57,266 bases of DNA from an uncultured Bacilli bacterium (GTDB taxonomy: Bacteria > Bacillota_I > Bacilli_A > RF39 > UBA660), in assembly GCA_947627925.1 (NCBI GenBank), contig CANQXW010000004.1:1-57266 (forward strand). The letters run 5' to 3'. Below, one piece after another: positions 11,785 through 54,879 of this stretch (position 1 is its first letter; each line of letters opens with the position of its first letter). The notes below the pieces were generated by a model. The model had not been told where the DNA came from. It saw nothing but the letters and a program-made list of their open reading frames with translations, and searched no databases. A program made the translations under genes and the position numbers.

Positions 11785-12687
11785 TTAGCGATGACGAGTT
11801 AATTCATCTAATGATTTAGAATAATTATTGTTATAGTTTTTTAATCGTTCATTCCTATTTTTTGGAGTATCTATAGATGATTTTTCGGCTTCATAATATT
11901 GATGTAATTTACATAAAGCTCTATGATAATGATAACTTACGGCTTGAATCTTGACATTCAAAATTTGGGCAATTTCCAATAATTTCATTTTTTCATAGCC
12001 AGGAAGACCATAATAATGACCAATGACAAATAATTGTCTAGGAGTTAAAATCTCGTTTAAAGTAGCTTTTAAATGATCGGTGACATCTAAAGATATGACC
12101 TGATCTTCTACTGACTCATCCGGAGAAATTATAGTGGATTCAAAATCTTTACTATCACTATCATCATTAATATTATCATTTATCCGAACACAACCACCGA
12201 TAGCAGTTAAAAGAGATAAGGCCGTATCTTCTTTTATCCCCATACATGTAGCAAATTCTTCAAGACTTGGCTTTCTTTCTAATTTATTTGCTAATTCACG
12301 GTAGACATATTTGGCTTTTTGAAATTTACCATAAATTATACTATTTTTAGGAACTGAAAAATCATAACCCATCGTTTGCACAAATTCCTGTAAATTTCTT
12401 ATTACATATATAGGCATATAAGTTGAAAAACGATATCCAAGACTAGGATTATAATTATTTATAGCTTTAAGTAAACCAATAACAGCTTCTTGAAATAAAT
12501 CTTCATGAGGAATACCAAAAGAAGAAAAACGATAAATACATCTTTCCATAAGCCCTATATTATAACTAATTAAGGCTTCTTGAGCTTCATTATTACCAGC
12601 TTTAGCATTTCGAATTAAAGCTTGCTCTTGTTCTAAAGATAAATCATTTGGCATAGATTTAATTTCTTCATAACTACAACTAGCCAT
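11785..12687 (-). CDS. sigma-70 family RNA polymerase sigma factor (paralog 1)
   Basis: 300 aa. Region 2 is 'DLFQEAVIGLLKAINNYNPSLGYRFSTYMPIYVIRNL', there is a region-3-like 'PSLEEFATCMGI', and the region 4 HTH is 'LTPRQLFVIGHYYGLPGYEKMKLLEIAQILNVKIQAVSYHYHRAL'. Confidence 0.85.
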   Translation of the reverse strand: MASCSYEEIKSMPNDLSLEQEQALIRNAKAGNNEAQEALISYNIGLMERCIYRFSSFGIPHEDLFQEAVIGLLKAINNYNPSLGYRFSTYMPIYVIRNLQEFVQTMGYDFSVPKNSIIYGKFQKAKYVYRELANKLERKPSLEEFATCMGIKEDTALSLLTAIGGCVRINDNINDDSDSKDFESTIISPDESVEDQVISLDVTDHLKATLNEILTPRQLFVIGHYYGLPGYEKMKLLEIAQILNVKIQAVSYHYHRALCKLHQYYEAEKSSIDTPKNRNERLKNYNNNYSKSLDELTRHR

Positions 12688-12766: not shown

Positions 12767-13678
12767 TTAACGATTACGTGTTGATCTATTTAATGATTGA
12801 TAATAACTATCGCTAAAATTTTTTAATTGTTCTTCCCCTTTTTTGGGGTAATCTAAATAAGATGATAATCTTTTTGTTTCATAATAAAGGCGTAATTTAG
12901 TTAAAGCTTTTTTATAATATAAATCGACATTTTGATGCGTTACATGCCACAAACGCGCTATTTCTGATAAGCTCATTTTCTCATAACCTGGAAGGCCAAA
13001 AAAATGGCAAATGATAAATAATTGTTTAGGAGTTAAAATTTTATGTAAAATAGACGTTAAACGTTCAGCTAAATCTAATGCCATGACTTGATCCTCCACT
13101 GATTGTTCCGTACTTGTTAAAAAAGATTCAACATCTTTACTATCATTATCATTCTTAATTTTAGCATTTAGGCGAACGCAACCACCGATAGTAGTTAAAA
13201 GAGATAGGGCGTCATTTTCACTCATATCCATACTGGCAGCAAATTCTTCCAGACTTGGCTTTCTTTTTGAATCAGCTGATAATTCGCGATAGACATATCT
13301 AGCTTTTTGTAATCTCCTATAAACTTCACTACTTTTAGCAACCGAAAAATCATAACCCATTATTTGAACTAGGTCCTCTAAAGCTCTTTTTATATATAAA
13401 CGAACATAAGTGGAAAAACGAAAATCAAGCTCAGGATTATATTTTTCTGTCGCCTTAAGAAGACCAATAACGGCTTCTTGGTATAAATCTTCATAAGGAA
13501 TACCATAAGAAGAAGCAAAATGATAAGCATAATAATTAATAGTCCCCGCATTATAACTTATTAAAGCCTCTTGAGCTTCAGAAATACCCATCGCCGCAGC
13601 CCTTATTAAATTTTTTTCAGCTTCTAAAGATAACGTATTCTCTTGTTGTTTAATTCTCTCATAACTACAACTTGCCAT
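12767..13678 (-). CDS. sigma-70 family RNA polymerase sigma factor (paralog 2)
   Basis: 303 aa, colinear with paralog 1. It has the same 'MASCSYE' N-terminus and the motifs 'EAQEALISYN', 'DLYQEAVIGLLKA', 'MGYDFSV', 'GGCVR' and 'ILTPKQLFIICHFFGLPGYEKMSLSEIA'. Confidence 0.85.
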   Translation of the reverse strand: MASCSYERIKQQENTLSLEAEKNLIRAAAMGISEAQEALISYNAGTINYYAYHFASSYGIPYEDLYQEAVIGLLKATEKYNPELDFRFSTYVRLYIKRALEDLVQIMGYDFSVAKSSEVYRRLQKARYVYRELSADSKRKPSLEEFAASMDMSENDALSLLTTIGGCVRLNAKIKNDNDSKDVESFLTSTEQSVEDQVMALDLAERLTSILHKILTPKQLFIICHFFGLPGYEKMSLSEIARLWHVTHQNVDLYYKKALTKLRLYYETKRLSSYLDYPKKGEEQLKNFSDSYYQSLNRSTRNR

Positions 13679-14103: not shown

Positions 14104-14937
14104 GTGAGTGTAATTGCATATTTTGATGAATCTGGAGATGACGGATTAAAAAATTATTCGAGTGAAATTTTTATTTTGACTGCAACGTATATGCATACAA
14201 GTAACTGGCAAGAAAATTATGATAAAATAAAAGAATTTAGACATTCTTTAAAAAAACATTATAATATTCCTATAAAAGAAGAATTCCATGCAGCAAATTT
14301 TTTTACGGATAAAAATCCTTATAGACAATATTCACTATCACCAAATGATAAAAAATTAATAGTCAAAGTATATGCTAAAGTTATTGCAAGTTTAAATATC
14401 AAAGTAATAAATACTATTATTGATAAAGAAAATATAACGAAGTCAGAATATAATGTTTTAAGTAATTCTTTAACTTATACAATTCAGAGAATAGAAAACG
14501 ATAGTAATTGGAAATATATTATTATATCTGACAAAGGAAGAATTCAAATTATGAAAAAAACAGCAAGAGCTATTCGAAATTATAATCCTATAACTTCCAT
14601 GTTTGATGAAAATTTTTACAAAAATTCACCTATAAAAAACATGATAGAAGATATATTAGAAAAGGACTCAAAAGAATCTTATTTTATTCAAGTAAGTGAT
14701 TTTATATCATTTATTATAAATCTTTATTATAAATATTGCGTAAAAAATAAAGAATTGCCAAAAAGAATATCTAGTTGGCTTACTAAAGAAGACATAATTG
14801 AACTTATGAATTTGCTGAAAGATATATTTAATATAAATGCAAGCGCTACCAATGAATATGGTTTAGTAATTTATCCTAAAAAGTTCCAAAAAAAAGGCAC
14901 CACCTTGCCCTCATTCGAGGATGGAGTGGTTCAATAA
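14104..14937 (+). CDS. DUF3800-domain protein
   Basis: 277 aa with a GTG start and a GAGGAAGTGA Shine-Dalgarno. The N-terminal 'VIAYFDESGDDG' is the DUF3800 hallmark. It is one of the few plus-strand genes. Confidence 0.7.
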   Translation: MSVIAYFDESGDDGLKNYSSEIFILTATYMHTSNWQENYDKIKEFRHSLKKHYNIPIKEEFHAANFFTDKNPYRQYSLSPNDKKLIVKVYAKVIASLNIKVINTIIDKENITKSEYNVLSNSLTYTIQRIENDSNWKYIIISDKGRIQIMKKTARAIRNYNPITSMFDENFYKNSPIKNMIEDILEKDSKESYFIQVSDFISFIINLYYKYCVKNKELPKRISSWLTKEDIIELMNLLKDIFNINASATNEYGLVIYPKKFQKKGTTLPSFEDGVVQ

Positions 14938-17126: not shown

Positions 17127-17762
17127 TTAAACATTAAGATAACTTCGCATTTTCTCTAAACTTTTCTTTTCATACCTGGAAACCATTACTTGAGTCATAT
17201 TAAGTTTTCTGGCTACTTCACTTTGCGTTAAGTCTTCATAATAACGCGATCTAATAATCTTCCTTTCTTCATCATTTAAGACTTTAAAACTATCATCAAC
17301 AAGGATTTTGGTATCTAAATCAATACTCTCTCCCACTGTTTCATAAAAACTTCGATCTTCATAAGAAGAATCTAAAGACATAATTTGGGAAGCACTATTA
17401 CAAGCTAAATCAACATCTTCAATACTTAACCCTAATAATTCCGCTAGTTCTAAATTACTTGGTACTTTATTCATACTCTGAGCATATTTATAACGAGCTA
17501 TTTCTAAATTTTTATATAATTTTAAGATATCTTTCCCCACTTTTATATTTCTGTTATTCGCAAGTAAATACATCTCGCCAAAAATATAATCATGAGCATA
17601 AGTTGAAAATTTAGTTTCACTATTAGGTTCATATTTTTTTAAGGCTTTTAAAAGCCCAACAATACCTGCCTGAAATAAATCATTTTTATCAACACCATAA
17701 AAATGACTAGCTATCTTCCAAATCATTTTTTCATTGTCTTTAACTACTTTTTCATAGTTCAT
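17127..17762 (-). CDS. sigF: sporulation-type sigma factor, SigF-like by synteny
   Basis: 211 aa from the ATG at 17762 (GGTG Shine-Dalgarno). 'DLFQAGIVGLLKALKKYEP..ETKFSTYA' is region 2. 'LTQSEVARKLNMTQVMVSRYEKKSLEKMR' is the sporulation-sigma region 4 ('QVxVSRxEKK'). It lies between a STAS gene and spoVA, as does spoIIAC in Bacillus. Confidence 0.75.
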   Translation of the reverse strand: MNYEKVVKDNEKMIWKIASHFYGVDKNDLFQAGIVGLLKALKKYEPNSETKFSTYAHDYIFGEMYLLANNRNIKVGKDILKLYKNLEIARYKYAQSMNKVPSNLELAELLGLSIEDVDLACNSASQIMSLDSSYEDRSFYETVGESIDLDTKILVDDSFKVLNDEERKIIRSRYYEDLTQSEVARKLNMTQVMVSRYEKKSLEKMRSYLNV

Positions 17763-18114
17763 TCTTTGCACCAAAATTTTTCATTATTCGCGTTTCTGAA
17801 GAAAATGTTTTAATACGTAATCTTCTTAATTTTGACTCTAATTCCCTCCTTACATTACAGATAAAAATATTTCCTTTGTAGTTTTTAACAAGACACTTTG
17901 TAAGAATTAAAGCATTTATTCCTGACTCATCAATACTATCTAAATATTTAAAATTATAAATAAGATTCTCTATTTTATGTTTCTTTAATACTGGTACTAA
18001 ATAATTATGAATCTTATAAACAGACCTCTTATTTAAATTTCCCTTTAATCTTACAAAAAGTATTTCTCTCTTATACCTTTTAAACTTCCGATATTCTAAA
18101 TCCATCTTTAACAT
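17752..18114 (-). CDS. spoIIAA: STAS-domain anti-sigma-factor antagonist (SpoIIAA-like)
   Basis: ~120 aa from the ATG at 18114 (AGGTGA Shine-Dalgarno). 'ILFVRLKGNLN...LDSIDESGINALIL' fits the STAS fold with a Ser in the DxSG-like loop. Its stop overlaps the sigma-gene start by 11 nt. Confidence 0.55.
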   Translation of the reverse strand: MLKMDLEYRKFKRYKREILFVRLKGNLNKRSVYKIHNYLVPVLKKHKIENLIYNFKYLDSIDESGINALILTKCLVKNYKGNIFICNVRRELESKLRRLRIKTFSSETRIMKNFGAKNEL

Positions 18115-18315
18115 ATATTCACCTGCTACTTTAATATAGTGCAATTTTTTAATTTTTTAAACAGATTCGACAAAGGTTAGCATATGTTATAAAAATCCGA
18201 CAAAATTAAACAAAATATACTTACATATAAAAAATGAATAAAGTCCAATCATTAATAGTACTTTATTCATAATTAGTTTATCTATATTCAATTTTTTAGT
18301 TTTTAAAAATATTCG

Positions 18316-22265: not shown

Positions 22266-22299
22266 ATAAAAACTAGAGTGAGCTCTCTAGTTCTTTTTT
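22266..22299. terminator. bidirectional rho-independent terminator closing the T7SS-locus transcription unit
   Basis: 'aaaAACTAGAG-tgagct-CTCTAGTTctttttt' is an 8-bp stem. It is flanked by an A-run and a T-run, so a U-tract follows on either strand. Confidence 0.6.
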
Positions 22300-22398
22300 A
22301 AGTTCCTCTTATGGTGGGAATCACCGCTTTTTTAAGTTCCTCTTATGGTGGGAATCACCGCTTTTTTAAGTTCCTCTTATATAGTGGGAATCACTAGC
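22294..22398. repeat. 34-bp tandem direct repeat x3 (third copy carries a 3-nt insertion)
   Basis: The unit 'ttttttaagttcctcttatggtgggaatcaccgc' starts at 22294, 22328 and 22362. The third copy has an 'ata' insertion and a changed 3' end ('cactagc'), and only the ttttttaa lead-in recurs at 22399. Each unit contains a mini hairpin GGTG-ggaat-CACC followed by a T-run. Confidence 0.9.
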
Positions 22399-22407
22399 TT
22401 TTTTAAT

Positions 22408-22435
22408 ACTTAATTACTTAATTACTTAATTAAGT
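22408..22435. repeat. 8-nt tandem repeat (acttaatt x3) ending in the palindrome acttaattaagt
   Basis: Read directly, ~40 nt downstream of the HerA-like stop codon. Confidence 0.85.
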
Positions 22436-22475
22436 ACTATTAATATACTACAAAATTATTACTATGTCAATTGGT

Positions 22476-24347
22476 TTAAATTTGTTCTAATTTAGGCATG
22501 GCAGCTACTTGCTCACCAGTATTTAGTATTTCACCCGTAACTGTACTAGATCCTACTACTGTTTCTGTGGTGCCAATATCACTTGATATATTATTTTTAG
22601 AATCCCAATATGAGGAAACATCACAGCTGGCTGAGTATGGTCTTGGATTAGGCATCTCTAATTTAACAATCATCGGAATTTTAAACGCTGTTCCAAAGGC
22701 GACGCAAGTACCAGGTTGTAATATTTTCATTTTTTCAATAACATCAGCACTGATATTAGGAAGCATTTCTTCAATATATTTAATATCTTTAGGGTGGGTC
22801 ATTTTAAAGATTAAAAAGTTGGAACATTGGGCAATAACAGTATCGGATATTTCTACTGGTCTTTGACTAATAATATCTAAAATAACCCCATATTTACGTC
22901 CTTCTTTAGCAATCCGATCAAAAATATTATATCCTAGTAAGAAGACATCATTATCTTGTTGAATATAACGATGGGCTTCTTCTAAAAATAAATGGAATGG
23001 CACAGTTGCTCTACTAGCATTATCTTTAGCAAAATCAAAGATAATCCGTGAATATATTTTAACTAAAGCTTTAGCATAAGCATCATCTAAAGTCTCTAAA
23101 TTAATATTAATAATTTGCGATTTATGATTATCTTTACTAACCAAACTAGTTATAAACTTAGCAGGAGAAACAAATTTATCTCCAGTAAAGAATTTACCCA
23201 TTTCATTATGTAAAATATTATTAAGTCTTACTCTTAATAATTGGGCATCATCATGCATATTTTTATTTTGATTAAATCCTTCACTAATTAAAGTAAATTC
23301 TAAAGCTTTAGCTAAATCATTTAAAGTATAAACAGCATCATTAACAACATCTAAATCTTCAATATCTTCTTTAATATATTTTAAAATATAATCCGTAATT
23401 AAGACTTCTTCTCCAAAATGACCATGATTATCAATTTGGAAACATTCACTAAAACTTCTTGTATAACCAACACCTGGGATAACAGCATCTAAATTAAATT
23501 CTTTAGTATGGCAAGTATCAATAATTGTAAAGATATCATCTTTCTTTTGTCTTGCGGTATTAGGACTATATAAAATAGTGATTAAAGCTTTAGCAATAAT
23601 ATTATTTTTATATTCATTAGCGGCTTCATTATCCGTGGCAAATATTTTAGCATATTTCATCGCTCTATCAATTATGGTTAGTTGAGAGTGCTTATCGGCT
23701 TGAAGTAAAACTCCTAAATCATCAACTTTTAATAAATTTAAAGGAATGTTAATTAAAACATCAGTGTCATCTTGAGGATGTGCTGTCACAAATTTATAAT
23801 TGTAATAAGGACTAATTGCGTTAATATTTTTAAAAGCATTTTTATATTCGCCAAAAGAATCAAAGAAAATTAAATTGGCATTATAAGCCAAAGCATTTTT
23901 ATTACTTAAAATATTTTGGACTACTCTAGATACTCCACAAGATTTACCAGAACCTGAGTTACCAAAAATACACATATGATTAGCAAATAAATCATTAATA
24001 TTCGGACAAACATTAAAGTTTTTATAGGTAGCACTAGCTCCTAAAACAAAGTTTTTGTTAGATTCTCTTCCGACTAATTCATATAATTCTTCCGTATTAA
24101 TAACTCTTATTTTACTATTTAAACTAGCTTTTCTAAGTAAACCATTATTATAATGACCATTTATATATTCCCCTAGAAAACGAACTTCAATTTCTTTTTC
24201 TTTAAGTTCGACAATCTCGCCTAAAATCTTTTGATCACCATTTTCAAAAATTAAATGCAAATTAAGTAAATCGCCCGCTGCTTCTGACCCTCCTAAATTT
24301 TCAATAAACGCTACATTATCACTTATGTATAATATTTTTCCAAACAT
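22476..24347 (-). CDS. HerA/DUF87-like (FtsK-HerA superfamily) P-loop ATPase
   Basis: 623 aa. N-terminal barrel-like region, Walker A 'IFGNSGSGKSCG', Walker B/'FLEEAHRY', and 'GRKYGVILDIISQRPVEISDTVIAQCSNFLIFKM'. AAAGGGA Shine-Dalgarno, 24 nt after the preceding gene. Confidence 0.75.
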   Translation of the reverse strand: MFGKILYISDNVAFIENLGGSEAAGDLLNLHLIFENGDQKILGEIVELKEKEIEVRFLGEYINGHYNNGLLRKASLNSKIRVINTEELYELVGRESNKNFVLGASATYKNFNVCPNINDLFANHMCIFGNSGSGKSCGVSRVVQNILSNKNALAYNANLIFFDSFGEYKNAFKNINAISPYYNYKFVTAHPQDDTDVLINIPLNLLKVDDLGVLLQADKHSQLTIIDRAMKYAKIFATDNEAANEYKNNIIAKALITILYSPNTARQKKDDIFTIIDTCHTKEFNLDAVIPGVGYTRSFSECFQIDNHGHFGEEVLITDYILKYIKEDIEDLDVVNDAVYTLNDLAKALEFTLISEGFNQNKNMHDDAQLLRVRLNNILHNEMGKFFTGDKFVSPAKFITSLVSKDNHKSQIININLETLDDAYAKALVKIYSRIIFDFAKDNASRATVPFHLFLEEAHRYIQQDNDVFLLGYNIFDRIAKEGRKYGVILDIISQRPVEISDTVIAQCSNFLIFKMTHPKDIKYIEEMLPNISADVIEKMKILQPGTCVAFGTAFKIPMIVKLEMPNPRPYSASCDVSSYWDSKNNISSDIGTTETVVGSSTVTGEILNTGEQVAAMPKLEQI

Positions 24348-24371
24348 TATTATATCCCTTTCTAACTTCTT

Positions 24372-24803
24372 CTAACTTAAAAGAGTACTTATAGTGGCTT
24401 CTTCATCAGCAATAAGCCTTTGATAATAATATATATTATTTTGAGCCTGGGCTTTTTTCCTATCATTTTCCTCTTTATTATCGTCATTATCTTGTAAACT
24501 AGTAATTTGATTATATCGTATACTACTAATTTGTCTTTCATAACTTTGAATATTTTGAATATGGTCTGCTGCACTTATGATATTTTGTAATTTTTTTTGT
24601 AAAACAGCAATACTACCATTAATACTAGTTGAAGATATAACATCTTGTAATTTATTTTTAGCCAACTTATTAACTTTAGTTGATAAAATACTCGTATTTA
24701 AACTATCTTTTATACTACTTAAATTATGCTTTTCTAAATCTTTCATGGCATTAGTCGCAGTTGTTTTTAAATTGGCCGTAGCCACATTAGAATATGTACT
24801 CAT
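24372..24803 (-). CDS. small helical hypothetical protein (T7SS-locus associated)
   Basis: 143 aa, Ser/Asn/Gln-rich with predicted coiled-coil character. No WXG motif. Packed between a WXG-like gene and the HerA-like gene. Confidence 0.55.
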   Translation of the reverse strand: MSTYSNVATANLKTTATNAMKDLEKHNLSSIKDSLNTSILSTKVNKLAKNKLQDVISSTSINGSIAVLQKKLQNIISAADHIQNIQSYERQISSIRYNQITSLQDNDDNKEENDRKKAQAQNNIYYYQRLIADEEATISTLLS

Positions 24804-24817
24804 CTAAATTCTCCATT

Positions 24818-25081
24818 CTAACTATCCATCCGACGATAATTCATTGTAACATTTTCTAAATATTCTTCAATATTTTTATATTTACTTATTAAAACTTCAT
24901 AATTTTCCTGAAATGTAGAATACATATTGGCAAAATAATCTCTAGTTGGTGAATCCCAACTACCCGTACTAGTAACACTTTTAAAAGAAGAATCAACGGA
25001 ATCCATTAAAGCCATCATATCATGAAATTTTTCCACCATATTAGATTTATAATTGTCTAAAGCCTCGTAATCACAATACAT
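24818..25081 (-). CDS. WXG100-like small protein (WDS variant of the turn motif)
   Basis: 87 aa with a central 'GSWDSPTRDYF', in the size and position typical of an Esx partner protein. Confidence 0.55.
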   Translation of the reverse strand: MYCDYEALDNYKSNMVEKFHDMMALMDSVDSSFKSVTSTGSWDSPTRDYFANMYSTFQENYEVLISKYKNIEEYLENVTMNYRRMDS

Positions 25082-25090
25082 ATATATCTC

Positions 25091-25384
25091 TCATTTCAAA
25101 ACGATGCTTTTATTTCCATAAGCATCATCAAGCGTTGTTATTGCTGTAGTATAACCTGTTATATATTCTTGATATTTATTTAATGACTCTTGAAATTCTT
25201 TTACTTCTTCGAAAAATTCTTCCATTTTCGTTTCAAAAGTATCATGGTCACTACCTTCCCAAATAGAAGCAATATCACCCATTATAATTTTCACACTATC
25301 AATATCTAATTCAAAACTATCTATGGATTCAATAATTTTATTTTTATTACTATTTAATGATCCTGTATTAACTGCTACATCCAT
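25091..25384 (-). CDS. WXG100-family (EsxA-like) protein
   Basis: 97 aa with a central 'IWEGSDHDTF' WXG motif and a helix-turn-helix length typical of ESAT-6-like proteins. Confidence 0.7.
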   Translation of the reverse strand: MDVAVNTGSLNSNKNKIIESIDSFELDIDSVKIIMGDIASIWEGSDHDTFETKMEEFFEEVKEFQESLNKYQEYITGYTTAITTLDDAYGNKSIVLK

Positions 25385-25438
25385 AATTCAACGCCCTTTC
25401 ATAAATAAGACTTAAAAATTTTTTTAAATCTTATTTAT

Positions 25439-25462
25439 GAAAACCACAATATTGTGGTTTTC
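25439..25462 (-). terminator. intrinsic terminator/attenuator after the double-WXG gene
   Basis: The palindrome GAAAACCACA-atat-TGTGGTTTTC is a GC-containing stem followed by TTTTC on the minus strand. A second long AT-rich hairpin (25400..25439, arms cataaataaga/tcttatttatg) follows. Confidence 0.5.
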
Positions 25463-25471
25463 TTATTCTTA

Positions 25472-26131
25472 TTATGCACTTGCGCCAGAATCGGCAGTTT
25501 GAGCATTTTCGCCAGCTTGCTTAATATTGCTTATGCAACGATTTAAATCAGTATTAATAGTTTCCATGTTAGTATCAACTATGCTTTTTAAAGTTTCATA
25601 AGTACTTGCAGCAGCATTTCCTTCCCAACATTCTTCGGTTCCATTACCAATACGTGCTAAATGAGAATCAATATTTGATTTGAAAACTGATAAATTTTCT
25701 CTAATACTATCTAATTCTTCACCAATACTAACAATTGTAGCATAATCGTAAGTTACATAATCAGTATCAATTGTTTTTGCATCAAAATTACTTAAATCAA
25801 CTTTTGTAATTTCTCCTAATCCATCAAGTGCACTACCTAAGTTATCTGTTTCTAATTGACCAACTTGCGTATTTAATTCAGTCATAGAACTTTGAAATTC
25901 AGCCATAAAACTATTAGCAAATGCCACAAAAGCATCATGAGTAGTAACAAAATTATCAAAGTTTGCTTTAGCAGCACTACCTGTCCATACTCCAGGTTGC
26001 ATAAGAGCATCGATTTGTGCTTTGAATTTATCGCTAGCACCTTTTAAAGTATCTCCGCTTCCTCCAATATCATCTAATATTTGATTTACCCAACTTTTCA
26101 TACCTTCTGGTACATATTTAAATACAGCCAT
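25472..26131 (-). CDS. fused tandem WXG100-like protein
   Basis: 219 aa from the ATG at 26131 (GGAGGA Shine-Dalgarno). It has two WXG motifs, 'GVWTGSAAKANF' (N-half) and 'ECWEGNAAASTY' (C-half). Confidence 0.7.
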   Translation of the reverse strand: MAVFKYVPEGMKSWVNQILDDIGGSGDTLKGASDKFKAQIDALMQPGVWTGSAAKANFDNFVTTHDAFVAFANSFMAEFQSSMTELNTQVGQLETDNLGSALDGLGEITKVDLSNFDAKTIDTDYVTYDYATIVSIGEELDSIRENLSVFKSNIDSHLARIGNGTEECWEGNAAASTYETLKSIVDTNMETINTDLNRCISNIKQAGENAQTADSGASA

Positions 26132-26257
26132 TATTTTCCTCCTTCTATCATATATGACTCTATATATTTTTACTATATCATAACTAATAACGATATGCAA
26201 ATTCTATTTACTTATATTTTACATTTATCTACTATGGTTTTTGAATTATTTAATAAG

Positions 26258-26533
26258 TTATAAACTTTTAAAATATCTATTTAAAGCTTCTGTTTCCATA
26301 ATGCTACACTTATTATCAATTGCTTCTTTTAAAATATCTATTTGAGTATCTCTATCATTTATAGAATACCAACTACTAGGATAAATTATTTCTCTTATTT
26401 TTTCTTCTGGAACTTGCGAAAAATCATAATATTCTAACATCATTTTTTTATATTGTAATTGATATCTAGCCAGAATAAAATCCGTTTCATCTAAATTGGC
26501 AATTCTTTCTCTAATTTTATCTTCTATACTCAT
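26258..26533 (-). CDS. hypothetical small protein (candidate immunity/accessory)
   Basis: 91-aa ORF downstream of the giant effector. No motif recognised. Confidence 0.45.
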   Translation of the reverse strand: MSIEDKIRERIANLDETDFILARYQLQYKKMMLEYYDFSQVPEEKIREIIYPSSWYSINDRDTQIDILKEAIDNKCSIMETEALNRYFKSL

Positions 26534-26591
26534 TATATCACCTAATTTCTTAATTTTAATTTTAAAATATTTAATTTAAATTGTAAATATT

Positions 26592-27182
26592 TTAAAAGCC
26601 ATCATTTAAAATAAAATTTACTTCAATATTTAACGATTCTTCCAAAAAACTTTTTAAAGAACTAGAAATATTATTATAAAATTCTCTAATTTGTTTACTT
26701 TCCGTGACCGTACAAAGTTTATCATCATAAACAAATTCAAATACTAAAGACTTAGAATTAACTTCATTTTTTTCTATTGGTATTCCATAAAACACTGTGT
26801 CACCTTGTTCAAAGATAACATCTTTTATTGTTTTTAATATAAATTCATCATCTAAATATTTTTTATCAAACAAACAACTTTTTATGTATTGAATATCTTT
26901 TTTAGTTAAATTTTCAATATGAATATTATTTCTTAAAAATAAATATTTACTATTTAGTGTTGAATTTTCTAAATAAAAATTATGACTTATATCTTTTTTT
27001 TCAGGAATAAATAATATCTTTTTTTTAATTAATTCATCAAGACTATCAAATTTTACATATTTCATTAAAAACTTTTCTAAACTTGATTTATATTTTATTT
27101 GTAGTTGCACAAATAATTCTTCTAAATTCAGTTGTTTTATTAAATTATCATTGTACGTATTTGGCGAATAATCATAAATCAT
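26592..27182 (-). CDS. hypothetical protein (candidate immunity protein)
   Basis: 196-aa ORF starting 12 nt after the effector stop codon. No signal peptide or TM visible. Confidence 0.5.
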   Translation of the reverse strand: MIYDYSPNTYNDNLIKQLNLEELFVQLQIKYKSSLEKFLMKYVKFDSLDELIKKKILFIPEKKDISHNFYLENSTLNSKYLFLRNNIHIENLTKKDIQYIKSCLFDKKYLDDEFILKTIKDVIFEQGDTVFYGIPIEKNEVNSKSLVFEFVYDDKLCTVTESKQIREFYNNISSSLKSFLEESLNIEVNFILNDGF

Positions 27183-27193
27183 ATTTAACCTCC

Positions 27194-38600: not shown

Positions 38601-40272
38601 ATTTTATTGAATCAGTAATAATTACATAATGAGGAATACATTTTTCATTATTTCGATTTAATTCTTTTCTTTCCGCTAAAATTTTTTCTAAATTATAAAT
38701 AATTTCCCGATATTCATCATTAGATGAAGCAAAAAATCTTAAAGTGCGGTCATTAGACCAATTATGAGGAAGAATTTTTATATAATCCCAATCTTTTTCA
38801 TTATCTTTAGAAGTAAATAAAACAATTTTTAGCTCATCATAACTATAATTAGCCATTATTTGGAGAATTAACCGATCAATAAATTCTTTAGTAGTTAAAT
38901 TATCCCCAATGATTCCGGTAGCTTTATTATCATAAAAAGAATAAGTAATAGGAACATCATTTAAAATTCGTTCTTTTTGACCTAAAGCTCTTGCGACTCC
39001 GATTAAATTATCCTCTTCTAAAGTAAAATGTTCTTCAGGATATTTAATATCTACTTGCATTGGTTTATTACCAATACCCACTGGTAAGGTTAAAAAGTCT
39101 TCATCATTTACCCTTCTTTGCCACAATTTAATATTATGACCTCTAATGATATCTTGACAACCAGTAACAGTAAAATTATTTTCTAATAAACTTTTTCTTT
39201 GAATTTCTAATTCATTAATAATTTCTTCTTCTTTTTTCTTTATATATTTTTTATATAATTTTTGTCTTTTTCGTTCATATAATTTATTACTTATTTTTTG
39301 ATAAGCTCTTGTTAAAAGAGGCCATAAAAGACTACTGGCTAACATCGCCCCACACATTACTAATGATCTTGTTTGACTTTTGACATCTCCTTCACCACTA
39401 TTCATTTGATCCAAAGTAAAAATTAAAGTGACAACTGAAGTCATAGCCATAGTCATCATTGGACCAATAGTTAAAATGGCCGGAGTTTTATCATCTTCCT
39501 TTTTAGTTGGGGGAACATCTAAATCTAAAACATATTTTTCTAAAGTTTTATAAAATCTAGGTGTCCTATAAAAATAATTATCTTCATTATATATTGATTC
39601 AGTATTAAGTTCTTCTTCATCAATAACTTCATCATTAGGAGCAAAGACTGGATTAACATATCTTGCATCAAAAACTAAAAGCTTATTAGGATTATTCACT
39701 AATAAATAATCATGGTTCTCTCTTCGCATGACAATTATCTTTAACCCAAATATAAAAATTATATCACCATATTCTAATCTTTTAGTTTGAATAACTCTTT
39801 TTTGATTAACATATACACTAGTTGTAGCATCAAAAATATCTAAATAAAAATATTTATCTTTCTTTTCAATAGTGAACGCTCTTTGAGGCATACCTACCAA
39901 TTTGTAGCATATATTACAAGATTCATCAGAACCTACTAATACTTTACTTTCAATTGGCAATTCTTTATAAGTATTATCATATACAGGTGAACAATATATA
40001 TAACACATTTCATCTTTATAATTATTTTTTAATAAATAAAAATTATATTCTTTTAATAAGACATAAGGAACCATCATGCCCTTACTATCTACAACATAAG
40101 CATCACTATTACTTACTAAATTCCATCCTTCTTTAGTAGCTTCAATATTAAGCAAATTAATTTTGCGGCCATTTTCAAAATCAGTAATCCAGTAATTTCC
40201 GGATACTTCATTAGGCAATGTAAAAATATTTAATTTATTTTTTCTAATTATTGTTAATTGCATTTTAACCAC
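35653..40272 (-). CDS. essC: type VII secretion FtsK/SpoIIIE-family ATPase EssC
   Basis: 1539 aa. EssC-type FHA-like N-terminus ('LPNEVSGNYWI'), two TM helices ('ILTIGPMMTMAMTSVVTLIF', 'LVMCGAMLASSLLWPLL'), P-loops 'AGTTGSGKSEF' and 'YGSAGSGKENF', and a degenerate third ATPase domain. Confidence 0.93.
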   Translation of the reverse strand: MVKMQLTIIRKNKLNIFTLPNEVSGNYWITDFENGRKINLLNIEATKEGWNLVSNSDAYVVDSKGMMVPYVLLKEYNFYLLKNNYKDEMCYIYCSPVYDNTYKELPIESKVLVGSDESCNICYKLVGMPQRAFTIEKKDKYFYLDIFDATTSVYVNQKRVIQTKRLEYGDIIFIFGLKIIVMRRENHDYLLVNNPNKLLVFDARYVNPVFAPNDEVIDEEELNTESIYNEDNYFYRTPRFYKTLEKYVLDLDVPPTKKEDDKTPAILTIGPMMTMAMTSVVTLIFTLDQMNSGEGDVKSQTRSLVMCGAMLASSLLWPLLTRAYQKISNKLYERKRQKLYKKYIKKKEEEIINELEIQRKSLLENNFTVTGCQDIIRGHNIKLWQRRVNDEDFLTLPVGIGNKPMQVDIKYPEEHFTLEEDNLIGVARALGQKERILNDVPITYSFYDNKATGIIGDNLTTKEFIDRLILQIMANYSYDELKIVLFTSKDNEKDWDYIKILPHNWSNDRTLRFFASSNDEYREIIYNLEKILAERKELNRNNEKCIPHYVIITDSIKSIDNYDFIKNIMSSEVNYGFNIIMLVDKVMALPNECRSFINVSREDCSIYSSVINSEIQKFKIDFSPIEEISNCARELANIPIDIKTEVESSLPDKYEFLEMYQVGKIEQLNSEERWKKNNPILSLQAPVGIGKSGEPIVLDLHEKYHGPHGLIAGTTGSGKSEFIITYILSLAINYNPYEVQVILIDYKGGSLAGAFSNNMYQLPHLAGTITNLDGNELNRSLDSIESEVKRRQKEFNEARDIANESSIDIYKYQKLWREGRLKGKDPIAHLFIISDEFAELKEQQPEFMDKLISVARVGRSLGVHLILATQKPGGVVNAQIWSNTRFRVCLKVQDTADSQEIIKKPDAAYLKKTGRFYLQVGTDEVFTIGQSAWAGGQYYPNTIFKRDVDTSINAINNIGFITTTKDLEVKEEVKSLGEELPNIVKYLSELAAKNNIKIKKLWLDKIPEFIYVDNLIQKYKFEKSPYNINPIIGEYDDPSTQNQFALNVPMSDLGNVIIYGSAGSGKENFLTSLIYSCMVSYTPEEVNFYIVDFGAETLRVFNNSPYVGDIVYLSDDDKFNNLIKMINLEIDSRKEKFAGFGGTYQSYIKESQEKVPNWIIIFNNFESISDNYETLLDEIMKISRDAYKYGIYLVITTSSSNSIRSRLRQNFSLIYALQQNDENEYINILGNVHKKYPAKYKGRGIFKKGDIYEFQTAYVSKENTNDYLREFINNKLKETTYRAKKIPSLPKIVNFETINEYLDNGFDIPIGINKTTLLAQKYNFRKNPINLIGAMEIESTFEFINSFVNEIIYTNYYDLLFINTTENNFSNKNLEGRIYSKNFDELINKLGKYVDDVYKVYEENDFNEEVIKNQKRYMCIVYGTHDFINKLSDETKKIFTELIKKDNQINIISFVMVDTTDILKSYAFDDWFKTGTDSSRGIYIGSGITYQSLFKVSKYDSEDREDISNDYGYVVQTSKLYKVKLLTSFVPDNETENHV

Positions 40273-40276
40273 CTTT

Positions 40277-40531
40277 TTAATACAAAATTAATTTAGAACC
40301 ATTTTTAATAGAGCTTTCTTTAACATATATTTGATCATCTATTTTTTCCCCAGTTATTTTATCGTATAAGCTTTTACAATTATCATTAACAAAAATTCCT
40401 TCACTTTCTTCTTCTACAATTTTAATTATTAAATTTTTAATAGTTCCCACTTTTTTAACAACTGGTATATACATATCAAATTCTTTTTCAATTAAAGGGA
40501 CATAAATTATTACCAATATTTTACTTTTCAT
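40277..40531 (-). CDS. esaB: YukD/EsaB-like ubiquitin-fold T7SS protein
   Basis: 84 aa immediately upstream of essC. 'DMYIPVVKKVGTIKNLII...ESSIKNGSKLILY' fits the YukD pattern. Confidence 0.75.
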   Translation of the reverse strand: MKSKILVIIYVPLIEKEFDMYIPVVKKVGTIKNLIIKIVEEESEGIFVNDNCKSLYDKITGEKIDDQIYVKESSIKNGSKLILY

Positions 40532-40537
40532 AAAAAC

Positions 40538-40750
40538 CTACCTTATTAAAAATATTACCAATAAGACAACCAAAAAGATAAATAATAATACTCCCCCAAT
40601 TATTAATGCTAAATATTTAGAATTACTTTTCTTCTCATTTTCTAAGGGTTCGGGACTTTCAGGTTTAAGATATAGACTTAATTTTGCCCCACAATTCATA
40701 CATACTTGATCACCAGGATTAATATTAAATCCACACTTATCACATTTCAT
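40538..40750 (-). CDS. zinc-ribbon single-pass membrane protein
   Basis: 70 aa. 'CDKCGFNINPGDQVCMNCG' (CxxC...CxxC) plus a C-terminal TM 'LALIIGGVLLFIFLVVLLVIFLI'. GGGTGA Shine-Dalgarno. Confidence 0.65.
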   Translation of the reverse strand: MKCDKCGFNINPGDQVCMNCGAKLSLYLKPESPEPLENEKKSNSKYLALIIGGVLLFIFLVVLLVIFLIR

Positions 40751-40782
40751 TGTCTCACCCTCTATTAAAGAAATTATAACAT

Positions 40783-40811
40783 AAATAATTTAACTTTTAA
40801 ATAATTTTATT
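40783..40811 (-). promoter_or_regulatory. putative internal promoter for the zinc-ribbon/esaB/essC genes
   Basis: Minus strand reads TTTAAA-N17-TATAAT with TGt extended -10, ~30 nt upstream of the ATG at 40750. Confidence 0.4.
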
Positions 40812-40957
40812 GATTTAATTTAATATTTAATATTTACTCTCTTTTAATTCAAAACAAAAGATTAAAAAACTATATAAAAAATATACAAAAGGAACCATGT
40901 TAATATTATTTTATCTAACATTATTTAATTCTTTATGTATATTTATTTTAAACTATT

Positions 40958-41311
40958 TTATATAGCTGCTAATGCGGAATTTATCGATTCTAAACTTCCA
41001 TTTATTTCATCTAATGATTGAGTAGCTCCAGACTCATTAGCAAGTGTTTCACTAGCATAATTTTTAAGCTCAGTTACTATACTATTATAAACTGATTCTA
41101 ATTTACTTGTAATTTCCTTAAAAGTAGTTGATAAATTTTCACATGTTGTTGATAAATTTGAATCTTCAGATTTAACAAGTTCACTCATTTCATTAAATAC
41201 CCAACTCATACCACTAGTATAAGAAGTAATCCCAACATCAGATCCGTTTAAAAATGTTCTTAATATAAGTAATGTTTTTGATAACTCTGTTACATTAAAA
41301 GTATTGTTCAT
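40958..41311 (-). CDS. small helical protein, family A copy 2 (T7SS-locus)
   Basis: 117 aa, paralog of 41633..41974. Shared motifs: 'MNN.FN', 'SEDS.LS.TC.N' and 'SL..IN..LE'. Confidence 0.6.
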   Translation of the reverse strand: MNNTFNVTELSKTLLILRTFLNGSDVGITSYTSGMSWVFNEMSELVKSEDSNLSTTCENLSTTFKEITSKLESVYNSIVTELKNYASETLANESGATQSLDEINGSLESINSALAAI

Positions 41312-41333
41312 TTAATAACCTCCTCGTATTTCA

Positions 41334-41615
41334 TCATTTATTTAAATCTCGTTGTAATTTCAAAAATTGATTAGATATTTTAGTTATATTTTGCACTTCG
41401 TTTTCTGTTAAATTTTTTGTTAATCCTATAAGTTTTTCTAGTTTTTCGTTTAGCTCTCTTCCTATTTCGGTTCCTGATATAAAAATTTGATAATTAGAAT
41501 CATTCTTTAAACCAGATGCAAGTTCTCCAGATGAATTACCTATCTGTTCACCAACAAACTTTATATTATTTATTTCACCTTCCATATTACTTATTCCATC
41601 TTTAGTTAAAGCCAT
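41334..41615 (-). CDS. small helical protein, family B copy 2 (T7SS-locus)
   Basis: 93 aa, paralog of 41992..42381. Shared motifs: 'MALT', 'N.SNYQIFISGTEIGRELNEKLEKLIGL' versus 'NDNYNKFVNGTEFGRAQNEKIQKIIGL'. Confidence 0.6.
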   Translation of the reverse strand: MALTKDGISNMEGEINNIKFVGEQIGNSSGELASGLKNDSNYQIFISGTEIGRELNEKLEKLIGLTKNLTENEVQNITKISNQFLKLQRDLNK

Positions 41616-41632
41616 AAATATTTCCTCCTTTT

Positions 41633-41974
41633 TTATAGACTATCTAAAATGCTCTTCGCATTTTCTAAACCTTCATTAGTTTGATTAAGACTTTGTGATG
41701 TTTGTGTTTCATTTTGAATTGTTTGTTGTACATAATTAGTTAATGCTGTTTTTATAACAGTCAAATTTTCTGATAATTTTGTCGATAAATTTCTGTACGT
41801 ATTATTAATATTATTACAAGTTCCTGATAATCCTGAATCTTCACTCATTACCATTCCGGATAATGATGAAAAATCATTTGAAATTTTCGAAAGAATCCGT
41901 ACTACCTCACTTTGTGTTGTTTCGATTCTATTAATAATTTCATTTATCTGATTAGCATTAAAACTATTATTCAT
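41633..41974 (-). CDS. small helical protein, family A copy 1 (T7SS-locus)
   Basis: 113 aa; see 40958..41311. Confidence 0.6.
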   Translation of the reverse strand: MNNSFNANQINEIINRIETTQSEVVRILSKISNDFSSLSGMVMSEDSGLSGTCNNINNTYRNLSTKLSENLTVIKTALTNYVQQTIQNETQTSQSLNQTNEGLENAKSILDSL

Positions 41975-41991
41975 ATTTTTTTCCTTTCTTA

Positions 41992-42381
41992 TTAATAAAG
42001 AGTTTCCCTATAACTCGAATCTCCAGGCCTTGCTACGGATGGGCCAGTAGAATGTGCCGCAACATCTCTTTTTGCTGCCGCCGCAGCTTCAGCAGCAGCC
42101 TTACGATTTATTTCTTCTTGACGATAGAAAAAATAATTTAATTGAGTAGTTAAATTAGTTGTTTCATTTGTTAGATTTTGATCAAAAAGACCTATTATTT
42201 TTTGAATTTTTTCATTTTGGGCTCTACCAAATTCTGTTCCATTTACAAATTTATTATAATTATCATTTTGACCTAAATAATTTTTCAAATCAGCAATAAG
42301 CTGTTTTGCCTCATTTAATTCACTTGTAATTGCTTGAGCTGTTCCTCGTCCATTACTAATTGAAACACTTGTTAATGCCAT
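41992..42381 (-). CDS. small helical protein, family B copy 1, with Ala-rich C-terminal tail
   Basis: 129 aa with an AAAGGAGAAG Shine-Dalgarno. Extra C-terminal tail 'RKAAAEAAAAAKRDVAAHSTGPSVARPGDSSYRETLY', encoded by a locally GC-rich stretch. Confidence 0.6.
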   Translation of the reverse strand: MALTSVSISNGRGTAQAITSELNEAKQLIADLKNYLGQNDNYNKFVNGTEFGRAQNEKIQKIIGLFDQNLTNETTNLTTQLNYFFYRQEEINRKAAAEAAAAAKRDVAAHSTGPSVARPGDSSYRETLY

Positions 42382-42469
42382 AAAATTATCTTCTCCTTTC
42401 TTTTGAGCAAAAAACTATTTATGTTAATAAACTACATAAACATTCTTACTTTCCTTATCTTACATGCTT

Positions 42470-42497
42470 ATTATATAATACCCCCCCCCGGTGTCAA
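42470..42497 (-). promoter_or_regulatory. consensus sigma-A promoter (TTGACA-N16-TATAAT) at the head of the T7SS locus
   Basis: Minus strand reads cTTGACAccGGGGGGGGGtattaTATAATaagc. The -35 is at 42492..42497 and the -10 at 42470..42475, ~90 nt upstream of the first ATG (42381). Confidence 0.6.
42481..42489. repeat. C9/G9 homopolymer inside the promoter spacer
   Basis: Nine consecutive C on the plus strand, read directly. This is the longest G/C run I saw in this AT-rich window. Confidence 0.95.
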
Positions 42498-42572: not shown

Positions 42573-43727
42573 TCATTTTATAATTCTTTTACCAGAAAGT
42601 AATGTATTTAAATTTCTTTTATAATAATCCCAAAGATTAGCTTTCAACACATCTTTATTAACGGTTATACCTACTTCGCCCACAATGTTTCCTTCATTAT
42701 CAATGATTTCAGCTGTTCCTATTTCTTTACCCTTTTTTAAAGGAGCTTCTAATTTATCTATTTTGACATTAATTGTATATTCTTTATCTTTATCATTAAC
42801 ATTTAAAAGTTCTGATGCTTCATTCATTAAAATTAATTTAACACTTTCTTCTTTTCCTTTTTCTACTCTCGCTTCATCAATAACTTTATTTTTTTCATAA
42901 ATAGTTCTTAATTTATAAGAATTAAAACCATAATTTAAAAGTTTGACCGTATCACTAGTCCTATTATCCGGCGTATCAACACCCATCACGACACTGATAA
43001 GACGCATATTGCTTTTTTTGGCCGTCGCGGTTAAGCAATAACCCGCCGTTTCCGTAAATCCGGTTTTAAGGCCATCAACATCAGGATAAAAACGGACTAA
43101 TTTATTAGTATTAACAAGCCACGTACTAGAGCCATCTGGTCTTTGTAAATAATCCTCATAAATACTTGTAAAACCTAAAACTTCTGGATAATTATTGATG
43201 AGATAAGATGCCATTAAACTCATATCTTTAGCGCTACTATAATGTCCTTCAGCATCAAGACCATGAGGATTTACAAAATGCGTATGCTTACACCCTAACT
43301 CAGTACATTTCTTATTCATCATCTCAACAAATTTTTCCGTGGTTCCCGCTACTTTTTCACTCATTGCCACCACCGCATCATTAGCAGAAGCAATGGCAAT
43401 TGATTTTAATAAATCTTTAACTTTATAAGAATCTCCCGTATTTAAATAGACTTGACTTCCACCCATACTATGAGCATTTTCGGATATAACTACTTTATCT
43501 TCCATTGTAAATGAACCATTATTAATGGCATCCATAATTAAAATCATACTCATTATTTTTGTCATACTTGCCGGAGCCTTTTCTAAATCAGCTTCTTTTT
43601 CATATAAAACTTTCCCTGTAGTGGCTTCAATTAAAATAGCACTTTCACTATATTCTGTAATATCTTCGGCCACTACTTTAATAAAAGGAATCAATAAAAA
43701 ACTAAATAACACTATTATTTTTTTCAA
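42573..43727 (-). CDS. D-alanyl-D-alanine carboxypeptidase (PBP5/S11 family)
   Basis: 384 aa with a TTG start and an AAGAGGTG Shine-Dalgarno. Signal peptide, 'PASMTKIM' (SxxK), 'SANDA' (SxN), 'KTGFT' (KTG), and a C-terminal PBP5 domain. Confidence 0.9.
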   Translation of the reverse strand: MKKIIVLFSFLLIPFIKVVAEDITEYSESAILIEATTGKVLYEKEADLEKAPASMTKIMSMILIMDAINNGSFTMEDKVVISENAHSMGGSQVYLNTGDSYKVKDLLKSIAIASANDAVVAMSEKVAGTTEKFVEMMNKKCTELGCKHTHFVNPHGLDAEGHYSSAKDMSLMASYLINNYPEVLGFTSIYEDYLQRPDGSSTWLVNTNKLVRFYPDVDGLKTGFTETAGYCLTATAKKSNMRLISVVMGVDTPDNRTSDTVKLLNYGFNSYKLRTIYEKNKVIDEARVEKGKEESVKLILMNEASELLNVNDKDKEYTINVKIDKLEAPLKKGKEIGTAEIIDNEGNIVGEVGITVNKDVLKANLWDYYKRNLNTLLSGKRIIK

Positions 43728-54803: not shown

Positions 54804-54843
54804 ATTTTCTACCTCCTACAAAAATTATAACACTGAGAAAAAT

Positions 54844-54868
54844 AAAAAAAAAGCCTTTTTTGGCTTTT
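54844..54868 (-). terminator. rho-independent terminator after lysS
   Basis: Minus strand: AAAAGCC-aaaaaa-GGCTTTT followed by a T-run. Confidence 0.6.
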
Positions 54869-54879
54869 CTAACTTAAAA

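Follow-up and report, generated by a model that had tools for sequence, protein, structure and literature searches.

A probable reduced type VII secretion locus without EssA, EssB or EsaA, frequently adjoined by a HerA-family ATPase gene, in uncultured gut Bacilli

Type VII secretion systems (T7SS) that lack EssA, EssB and EsaA have been described before. Garrett, Higginson and Palmer reported in 2024 the subtypes T7SSc-j, all of which are without these three proteins and most of which retain EssC together with a YukD-like protein and WXG100 proteins (PMC11217815). In the same survey TseK/TsjK is a protein with one transmembrane helix that matches zinc-ribbon proteins (PMC11217815, Supplementary Data 3), and the description of T7SSg names no membrane component besides the ATPase (PMC11217815). 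HerA is not discussed there, and a single DUF87 protein stands in the neighbourhood table without comment (PMC11217815). Our full-text searches found no description of a subtype later than T7SSc-j, nor any literature that links HerA or DUF87 to T7SS. Here we analyse a T7SS-like locus at 22.3-42.5 kb of a metagenomic contig from an uncultured Bacilli bacterium (CANQXW010000004.1), which was analysed over its whole length of 57,266 bp and is called the window below. The locus encodes EssC, YukD/EsaB, a zinc-ribbon transmembrane protein, WXG100 proteins, a DUF4176 protein, an effector of 2441 amino acids (aa) and a HerA-family ATPase. In our opinion it is probably a self-contained reduced T7SS of an undescribed subtype, coupled to a polymorphic-toxin cassette, and we put the probability of this reading at roughly 0.6.

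The proteins on which this reading depends in the first place are encoded side by side:

35653..40272, minus strand: EssC-type membrane ATPase, 1539 aa when read from a GTG, with Met4 as the probable true start.
40277..40531, minus strand: YukD/EsaB-type ubiquitin-like protein of 84 aa without a C-terminal Gly-Gly (it ends KLILY), identified by Pfam matches of its orthologues and by AlphaFold2.
40538..40750, minus strand: zinc-ribbon protein of 70 aa with one C-terminal transmembrane helix, TseK/TsjK-like (Pfam Zn_Ribbon_1, E 1.2e-5).

EssC reaches 1018 bits with NCBIfam TIGR03928, the cut-off of which is 778. Pfam recognises FHA and FtsK_SpoIIIE domains in it, two transmembrane helices are predicted near residues 266 and 303, a pattern scan finds one canonical Walker A motif, and its closest match in the PDB is YukB of B. 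subtilis (E 1.2e-113). The FHA residues that bind phosphothreonine (GR / SxxH / NG) are replaced in the clade of the window. L031, a locus from Murimonas intestini that resembles T7SSj and has a zinc-ribbon transmembrane protein beside a kinase-TPR protein, retains them; its EssC is 38% identical to that of the window. The 84-aa open reading frame (ORF) is less easily recognised. Taken alone it has no Pfam match, and its sequence profile matches nothing among PDB sequences, though YukD structures exist. This search was blank because the sequence alone is too weak, and the identity of YukD was settled by scanning each orthologue with Pfam, where 9 of the 28 match PF08817 YukD (best E 4.7e-5), together with structure prediction. 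The AlphaFold2 model, built with 33 homologues (pLDDT, the predicted local distance difference test, 92.9), is a ubiquitin-like beta-grasp, for which Foldseek returns ubiquitin-like folds with a top TM-score of 0.79 to the ubiquitin-like (Ubl) domain of EccD5 in the ESX-5 complex. In the zinc-ribbon protein the transmembrane helix begins near residue 49, and the N-terminus is of the cytoplasmic type without a signal peptide. It shares with EssC the distinction of being the only protein of the locus with transmembrane helices.

A search with EssC, restricted to one genome per species, returned 30 loci, and in 27 of them EssC is 59-78% identical to that of the window. We annotated these loci with our own ORF calls, blastp and family hidden Markov models (HMMs). 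All 27 belong to metagenome-assembled genomes of uncultured gut bacteria, and the labels used by NCBI within the lineage are Bacilli, 'Tenericutes', 'Mycoplasma sp.', Erysipelotrichaceae and Candidatus Ventrenecus. Every one of the 27 has YukD and EssC, most have a module of double-WXG, WXG, WXG and a helical protein of about 140 aa, and about two thirds have the zinc-ribbon gene (its family occurs in 18 related loci). Homology and the conservation seen in about 30 loci mark EssC, YukD and the WXG module as the core of the system, while the TseK-like zinc-ribbon protein is a frequent accessory. In a sister clade (L081-L083, YukD 46-48% identical) the cluster is smaller: besides an EssC of 1506-1521 aa with FHA it has just a YukD-like protein and two helical ORFs of about 68 aa, in a region that also carries rplM-rpsI; no WXG100 protein detectable by Pfam, no HerA and no zinc-ribbon gene were seen there.

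The original prediction had described an EssC and EsaB locus without EssA, EssB and EsaA, and this is borne out. Pfam and NCBIfam scans, which took in nearly all window ORFs of at least 90 aa, gave no match to the models of EssA, EssB/YukC or EsaA/YueB. For the related loci the negatives cover up to 10 kb on each side of EssC. The architecture of EssB/YukC, a protein of about 400-450 aa with a cytoplasmic pseudokinase, one transmembrane helix in its middle and an extracellular domain, is found neither in the window nor in the 27 related loci. A polytopic protein of about 1000 aa of the EsaA/YueB type is missing from the window, and no polytopic ORF lies inside any related cluster. As to EssA, no ORF of the locus matches its model, and the sole small transmembrane protein is the zinc-ribbon protein. 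Among the unlabelled ORFs inside related clusters only one, a 90-aa ORF of L040, has a transmembrane helix, and no unlabelled family occurs in more than three related loci. As there is no recurrent unlabelled transmembrane ORF, the clusters hold no hidden analogue of EssB, EsaA or EssA in cis. The comparison supports the view that the absence of the three is a property of the lineage and not an accident of the window. One ORF of the window, of 1059 aa, is as large as EsaA but resembles sigma-70.

Several ORFs outside the locus were considered for their size and rejected. The 1059-aa ORF just mentioned (8495-11674), the only one of about 1000 aa outside the locus, fails as EsaA for the reason given. 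The 416-aa ORF at 6775-8025 was a candidate EssB and has no family match, and the 151-aa ORF at 7943-8398, a candidate EssA, is a GNAT acetyltransferase. Two ORFs of 425 and 241 aa downstream of LytR, considered as EssB-like, have an N-terminal signal-anchor only and no family match; a relative of the 425-aa protein was found in housekeeping frames.

The WXG module consists of four genes:

25472..26131, minus strand: tandem double-WXG100 protein with the motifs WTG and WEG, about 219 aa from an internal ATG (TIGR03930).
25091-25384, minus strand: WXG100-like protein of 97 aa, motif WEG (Pfam WXG100 and TIGR03930, sub-threshold).
24818-25081, minus strand: WXG100-like protein of 87 aa with the degenerate motif WDS (Pfam WXG100 and TIGR03930, sub-threshold).
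24372..24803, minus strand: helical protein of 143 aa, the final gene of the conserved module, assigned by position and homologues.

The double-WXG protein scores 46.1 bits with TIGR03930 (cut-off 44.85) over two matched stretches, and its homologues in 16 loci measure 216-229 aa. The ORF was listed with 242 aa, and a start at the internal ATG, which gives about 219 aa, is the more likely one. The 97-aa and 87-aa proteins score 23.5 and 25.2 bits with Pfam WXG100, under its gathering score of 27.3, and have E-values of 1.2e-5 and 1.1e-3 with TIGR03930; their genes are kept as a pair in related loci. For the 143-aa protein neither Pfam nor NCBIfam yields a family match. Its homologues of 128-185 aa always follow the WXG pair in related loci.

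At the other end of the locus there are four more small helical proteins, which form two paralogous pairs, as judged by eye from the translations:

41992-42381, minus strand: helical protein of 129 aa, paralogous with the 93-aa protein.
41633-41974, minus strand: helical protein of 113 aa, paralogous with the 117-aa protein.
41334-41615, minus strand: helical protein of 93 aa, paralogous with the 129-aa protein.
40958-41311, minus strand: helical protein of 117 aa, paralogous with the 113-aa protein.

None has a significant Pfam or NCBIfam match; ESAT6_2 is hit weakly, with E 0.027. L028 has homologues of the 113/117-aa pair upstream of its zinc-ribbon gene. The four are probably Lap-like or WXG-like partners of the effector.

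The effector and the genes around it are the following:

34867..35466, minus strand: protein of 199 aa in the effector module, apparently two copies of a unit of about 90 aa, as suggested by the sizes of its homologues.
34542..34847, minus strand: DUF4176 protein of the LXG-toxin chaperone family (Pfam PF13780, E 3.5e-27).
27194..34519, minus strand: polymorphic effector of 2441 aa with a conserved N-terminal region of about 120-135 aa and a C-terminal domain of about 700 aa.
26592-27182, minus strand: ORF of 196 aa, a probable immunity protein by the position of its homologues.
26258-26533, minus strand: ORF of 91 aa.

Only residues 1 to about 130 of the effector align with the effectors of 12 other loci, and residues from about 1700 to 2440 align only with those of L006, L010, L027 and L036. 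Sharing just the first 120-135 residues or so across loci is the pattern of polymorphic toxins. No Pfam match (the LXG domain PF04740 included), NCBIfam match or PDB sequence match was obtained for the effector, and its C-terminal part of about 570 aa, when compared separately with PDB sequences, found nothing. Nevertheless, with a conserved N-terminal region, variable C-termini, and DUF4176 and small helical genes adjoining, it behaves like an LXG toxin. DUF4176 also accompanies the effectors of related loci. The 199-aa protein has no family match; its homologues are 87-93 aa long, stand two in tandem in L006 and are confined to loci with the effector module. Homologues of the 196-aa protein lie directly 3' of the L006 and L010 effectors, which share the C-terminal domain of the window effector, and more are found in L015 and L024; the 196-aa protein is thus probably the immunity protein of the effector.

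Across the related loci the genes for effector, DUF4176 and putative immunity protein form a movable cassette. In the window it lies between EssC and the WXG module; in relatives it is absent from that place or sited elsewhere. L004 runs zinc-ribbon gene, YukD, EssC, double-WXG, WXG, WXG, 143-aa homologue and HerA, with no effector between EssC and double-WXG, and relative to this arrangement the effector block of the window is an insert. In the effector module of four related clusters we also observed a soluble Hanks-type Ser/Thr kinase domain of 236-247 aa (L020:6947-7657, L034:8431-9156, L040:6001-6744 and L084:12269-13012, the latter two on the minus strand), which does not occur in the window. 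It has an HCDLKPSN loop, and its nearest PDB relatives are PknB and Stk1 (E 2e-25), for which reason it was rejected as an EssB-like pseudokinase. The clade in which it occurs is one whose EssC FHA domains have nevertheless lost the phosphothreonine-binding residues.

The last gene of the locus is of a different kind:

22476..24347, minus strand: soluble HerA-family ATPase of 623 aa (DUF87), 24 nucleotides (nt) downstream of the 143-aa gene.

DUF87 is matched with E 1.4e-17 and HerA proteins of the PDB with E 5.5e-43, the similarity being full-length. Both Walker motifs are intact (A: GNSGSGKS at residue 129; B: LFLEEAH at 453). More than 100 homologues are 67-95% identical to the protein, and its scores with the NCBIfam equivalogs, 167 and 142 bits, are far under the cut-offs of 850 and 800. 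No transmembrane helix is predicted, and hence HerA, a candidate replacement in the original prediction, cannot be a structural substitute for EssB, EsaA or EssA. Within 10 kb of EssC it is found in 17 of the 22 informative EssC loci and it is missing in the other five, as in the L081-L083 clade. At least five gene orders join it to T7SS genes. One is the 143-aa homologue followed by HerA, with gaps of -1 to 24 nt in most loci and of 73 and 91 nt in two; others are HerA, zinc-ribbon gene, YukD, EssC; EssC and HerA with a gap of 1 nt (L028); and zinc-ribbon gene and HerA (L041). In L040, L084 and L086 it is embedded in the cluster itself, with the WXG module on one side and the effector module on the other (one order being WXG module, HerA, effector module, YukD, EssC); in L086 it stands in the middle of an operon with all genes on one strand and a 16-nt gap on each side. 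Across the related loci the co-occurrence of zinc-ribbon protein, YukD, EssC and HerA is complete for YukD and EssC, and partial for the other two. In L029 (12658-14430) a frameshift or an assembly error has broken the HerA gene beside the T7SS cluster into two ORFs, of 169 and 546 aa.

Which alternatives have to be weighed? The locus could belong to a canonical T7SSb, as an accessory or split portion of it, with essA, essB and esaA encoded elsewhere in the genome. EssC would agree with this, as it exceeds the NCBIfam cut-off for T7SSb, has YukB as its nearest solved relative and carries an FHA domain without phosphothreonine-binding residues, as T7SSb EssC does (PMC11217815); moreover, most of the genome is out of view from a single 57-kb contig. 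Yet in characterised T7SSb loci the three genes are contiguous with essC (general knowledge; PMC11217815, T7SSb sheet), none of them lies within 10 kb in 27 species-level relatives with many genomic contexts, the window scans did not find them, and published EssC-based subtypes exist that lack all three (PMC11217815). We consider a split T7SSb improbable, and a reduced or alternative membrane complex, one of the two options offered originally, fits the 27 related loci better than an accessory island does.

The place of HerA is more difficult to judge. It could be an integral second motor, a hexameric ring docked under the ring of EssC, perhaps on the orphan FHA domains, that takes over the scaffolding by EssB or strips chaperones from the giant effectors. 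In the HerA subclade of the window about 85% of distinct contexts adjoin a T7SS, and the flank towards the T7SS is conserved while the opposite flank has at least 10 different neighbours, a point for this idea and against a housekeeping role. The variety of joint gene orders and the position between T7SS modules in L086, L084 and L040 argue in the same direction, and EccA and TsfV are cytosolic ATPases that other T7SS subtypes have recruited. On the other hand, HerA may be a housekeeping DNA-processing ATPase beside which T7SS cassettes tend to insert or recombine, so that the adjacency is historical. Its nearest solved relatives are HerA proteins that act on DNA, although none of the loci examined had a recognisable NurA, Sir2 or DUF4297 gene as a partner adjoining HerA. 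Several findings weigh against our reading of the locus, in addition to the limited view that one contig gives, and most concern HerA. Many HerA genes of 59-71% identity have no T7SS-family gene within 10 kb even when HMMs are used (HerA-centred metagenome scan), and the 77%-identical HerA of L085 has no T7SS neighbours either. HerA genes without an adjoining T7SS occur in a sister clade and in several members of the HerA clade of the window. Some HerA genes stand in fixed housekeeping frames, HerA, a ThiF-family gene, GpsA and MgsA/RarA in one clade and metG-HerA-tatD in another. HerA reaches 88% identity across loci against 59-78% for EssC and 21-42% for the WXG proteins; being better conserved than any T7SS protein of the loci, it shows the pattern expected of a housekeeping gene. 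In the near-identical strains L037 and L041 the HerA proteins are 99.8% identical and yet have unrelated T7SS cassettes directly upstream (EssC 38% and YukD 31% identical), with 96-98% DNA identity from about 90 bp upstream of HerA onward, through HerA-tatD-ksgA and beyond. The zinc-ribbon protein, also offered as a candidate replacement, is a real transmembrane protein, but it resembles the known TseK/TsjK, and in about a third of related loci its gene is not directly upstream of YukD. The short intergenic gaps around HerA do not discriminate between explanations, as they are short whichever gene comes next, tatD included. In our opinion, the association of HerA with T7SS is real and probably selected in the window subclade, while present evidence does not make HerA an obligate or T7SS-specific component. 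A housekeeping role with historical adjacency is a serious possibility, if short of an even chance; an integral second motor is a tentative idea that we would hold a little more loosely; and we are doubtful of the most specific proposal, an undescribed subtype, widespread among uncultured Bacilli from the gut of humans, rabbits, mice and ruminants, with EssC (with or without the zinc-ribbon anchor) as the sole membrane part and HerA recruited as a dedicated second motor or an assembly platform replacing the cytoplasmic scaffolding by EssB.

Two observations on the metG frame (L001-L003, L037-L039, L041) may be added. HerA lies there 2-7 nt upstream of tatD, a gene for a TatD-family DNase, which hints at a pairing of ATPase and nuclease unrelated to secretion. 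Compared to L041, L037 has a 5.2-kb insertion downstream. Even if HerA does not work with EssC, the pair L037/L041 reveals one chromosomal site at which entire T7SS cassettes are exchanged.

If the locus is indeed a self-contained reduced T7SS, it could work as follows. Hexamers of EssC with bound YukD, sometimes with the zinc-ribbon anchor, would form a translocon without EssA, EssB and EsaA. In B. subtilis, YukD nucleates assembly on YukB, the homologue of EssC. A cryo-electron microscopy study of 2025 on the B. subtilis core complex found that YukD binds YukB and promotes the association of YukB with YukC, which supports YukD-EssC as a building block and leaves the role of YukC unfilled here. 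The proteins of the WXG module would be co-secreted substrates or activators. The 2441-aa effector would be recognised via its conserved N-terminal helical region and bound by the Lap-like small helical proteins and DUF4176, and the 196-aa protein would neutralise the toxin domain inside the producer. HerA would be a co-transcribed and strongly conserved neighbour, perhaps an accessory cytosolic ATPase like EccA in T7SSa or TsfV in T7SSf. A naturally minimal system would sharpen the question of how the translocation channel of the Firmicute T7SS is built: clusters with EssC and, sometimes, a 70-aa single-pass protein as their membrane parts would provide a test of whether EssC and YukD suffice for a translocon. 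The lineage seems to be common in gut metagenomes, and the very large polymorphic toxins in its clusters make the system probably relevant to competition among gut bacteria. Should HerA prove to cooperate with EssC, protein secretion would for the first time be connected with an ATPase of the HerA class, and there would be a new case of a T7SS recruiting an extra ATPase.

The layout of the locus agrees with the original prediction in most respects. All 17 ORFs are at the positions claimed and on the minus strand, and the signals expected at both ends were found:

42470..42497, minus strand: predicted sigma-70-type promoter TTGACA-16-TATAAT upstream of the first gene, 12/12 consensus match.
22292-22271 and 22251-22223, minus strand: two terminator-like hairpins with T runs that close the locus, by sequence pattern.

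The promoter-like site is the only perfect consensus match in 34-42.8 kb, and it is a sequence match only. The description of a run with short junctions holds in part: most junctions are 4-24 nt, but there are four longer ones of 58, 87, 186 and 207 nt. The 91-aa gene is separated from the double-WXG gene by 57-126 nt, depending on the start codon chosen for the latter. Internal hairpins or promoter-like sites are seen near 35.65, 40.8 and 25.45 kb; together with the longer junctions they mean that a single transcript is not assured, and more than one is possible. The 186 nt that separate EssC from the 199-aa gene contain four copies of a 12-nt unit, AAAGCGACATTT (35533-35579), a palindromic hairpin (35642-35666) overlaps the stop codon of EssC, and a similar palindrome (25439-25462) follows the double-WXG gene. 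The repeats and palindromes at 35533-35666 and 25439-25462 may be internal attenuators or regulatory sites. Directly 3' of the HerA stop codon and before the terminators, there are 3.3 tandem copies of a 34-nt unit (22293-22406); the unit reads AAAAAAGCGGTGATTCCCACCATAAGAGGAACTT on the minus strand, has a hairpin of the type GGTGATTCCCACC in every copy and does not occur elsewhere in the window.

The window has about 28% G+C, and nearly all of its genes are on the minus strand. By Pfam and NCBIfam, both flanks of the locus carry genes of housekeeping and of sporulation: rbfA, infB, nusA, sigma factors, spoVA, a STAS protein with a sigma factor resembling spoIIAA-sigF, and further LytR, a DacF-like peptidase, a phosphoketolase, an ABC transporter and an aminoacyl-tRNA synthetase; the ORFs at 53310-56364 are, by Pfam, a carrier of the DcuC type and a class II aminoacyl-tRNA synthetase. 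In Bacillus a dacF-type carboxypeptidase, spoIIAA and sigF belong to one operon. Here the DacF-like carboxypeptidase (17127-18144) and the STAS protein with its sigma factor (42573-43727) are about 24 kb apart, with the T7SS, HerA, LytR and two secreted proteins in the DNA between them, and the STAS gene and the sigma gene showed no ORF for a SpoIIAB-type anti-sigma kinase between them. The 1059-aa ORF contains a complete sigma-70 core (regions 1.2-4, residues 207-471) between long N- and C-terminal extensions and has a 75-nt internal repeat at 8856-8999; two sigma-like paralogues come next, at 11785-12687 and 12767-13678. A DUF3800 gene (14104-14937, plus strand), among the very few on that strand, lies in the AT-rich gap between the sigma-like genes and spoVA; a DUF3800 gene is likewise near HerA in L085.

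How does the locus compare with described systems? With T7SSb it has in common an EssC with two transmembrane helices, FtsK-like ATPase domains and an FHA domain without phosphothreonine-binding residues, a separate YukD/EsaB, WXG100 proteins, and a large toxin that has a helical region for targeting at its N-terminus, along with DUF4176 and small helical partners; as said above, its EssC passes the T7SSb model TIGR03928 and is nearest to YukB. In T7SSb, EssC's FHA domains bind EssB. Of six T7SSb components, three are present (EssC, EsaB/YukD without Gly-Gly, WXG100) and three are missing in cis (EssB, EsaA and EssA), the latter also in the 27 related loci. Instead of the single EsxA of T7SSb, the window has a double-WXG100 protein and a WXG-like pair, and it has, in addition, the zinc-ribbon transmembrane protein and a usually adjoining HerA.

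T7SSe and T7SSj likewise have an EssC with FHA, a YukD-like protein and a small single-pass zinc-ribbon protein (TseK/TsjK), T7SSe also more than one WXG100 protein; the likeness to TseK is a likeness to its published description. By Pfam and NCBIfam, however, the locus is without the membrane Ser/Thr kinase TsxD, the PPM phosphatase TsxF, the DUF6382-FHA protein TsxJ and the large Ig-like TsxI, and the ATPase of these subtypes has a phosphothreonine-competent FHA domain, the residues of which are lost in the window EssC. Equally, the locus differs from T7SSf in having no PPM phosphatase TsfF, no DUF6382-FHA protein TsfJ with two transmembrane helices and no TadZ-like TsfV, and neither a vWA protein nor an EspG-like protein of published subtypes was found in it (Pfam/NCBIfam). 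T7SSg, known from Acetivibrio and Paenibacillus, has a similarly minimal set, which besides the ATPase counts two WXG100 proteins, a ubiquitin-like protein and a single additional soluble protein. But its TsgC lacks the FHA domain that the window EssC has, its extra protein is the DUF5050 beta-propeller TsgL (no beta-propeller ORF is in the locus) and not HerA, and its cluster adjoins Tad pilus genes.

For HerA itself, EccA of T7SSa and TsfV of T7SSf are a precedent, as each is an extra soluble P-loop ATPase inside a T7SS cluster, though of other classes: EccA is an AAA+ protein with TPR repeats and TsfV is TadZ/ParA-like, while the window protein belongs to the HerA/FtsK class (DUF87). With the HerA helicases of archaeal HerA-NurA and of the antiphage systems HerA-Sir2 and HerA-DUF4297 it shares the central DUF87 domain with Walker A and B, but it lies beside T7SS genes (elsewhere beside tatD, ThiF-family or variable genes) and stays below the equivalog scores. 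To judge from its predicted proteins, the gene set of the window matches no published subtype T7SSc-j. The lack of EssA, EssB and EsaA in cis is a departure from T7SSb, and one with precedents; by itself it is no longer surprising, and what is new is the minimal membrane set together with a recurrent HerA neighbour.

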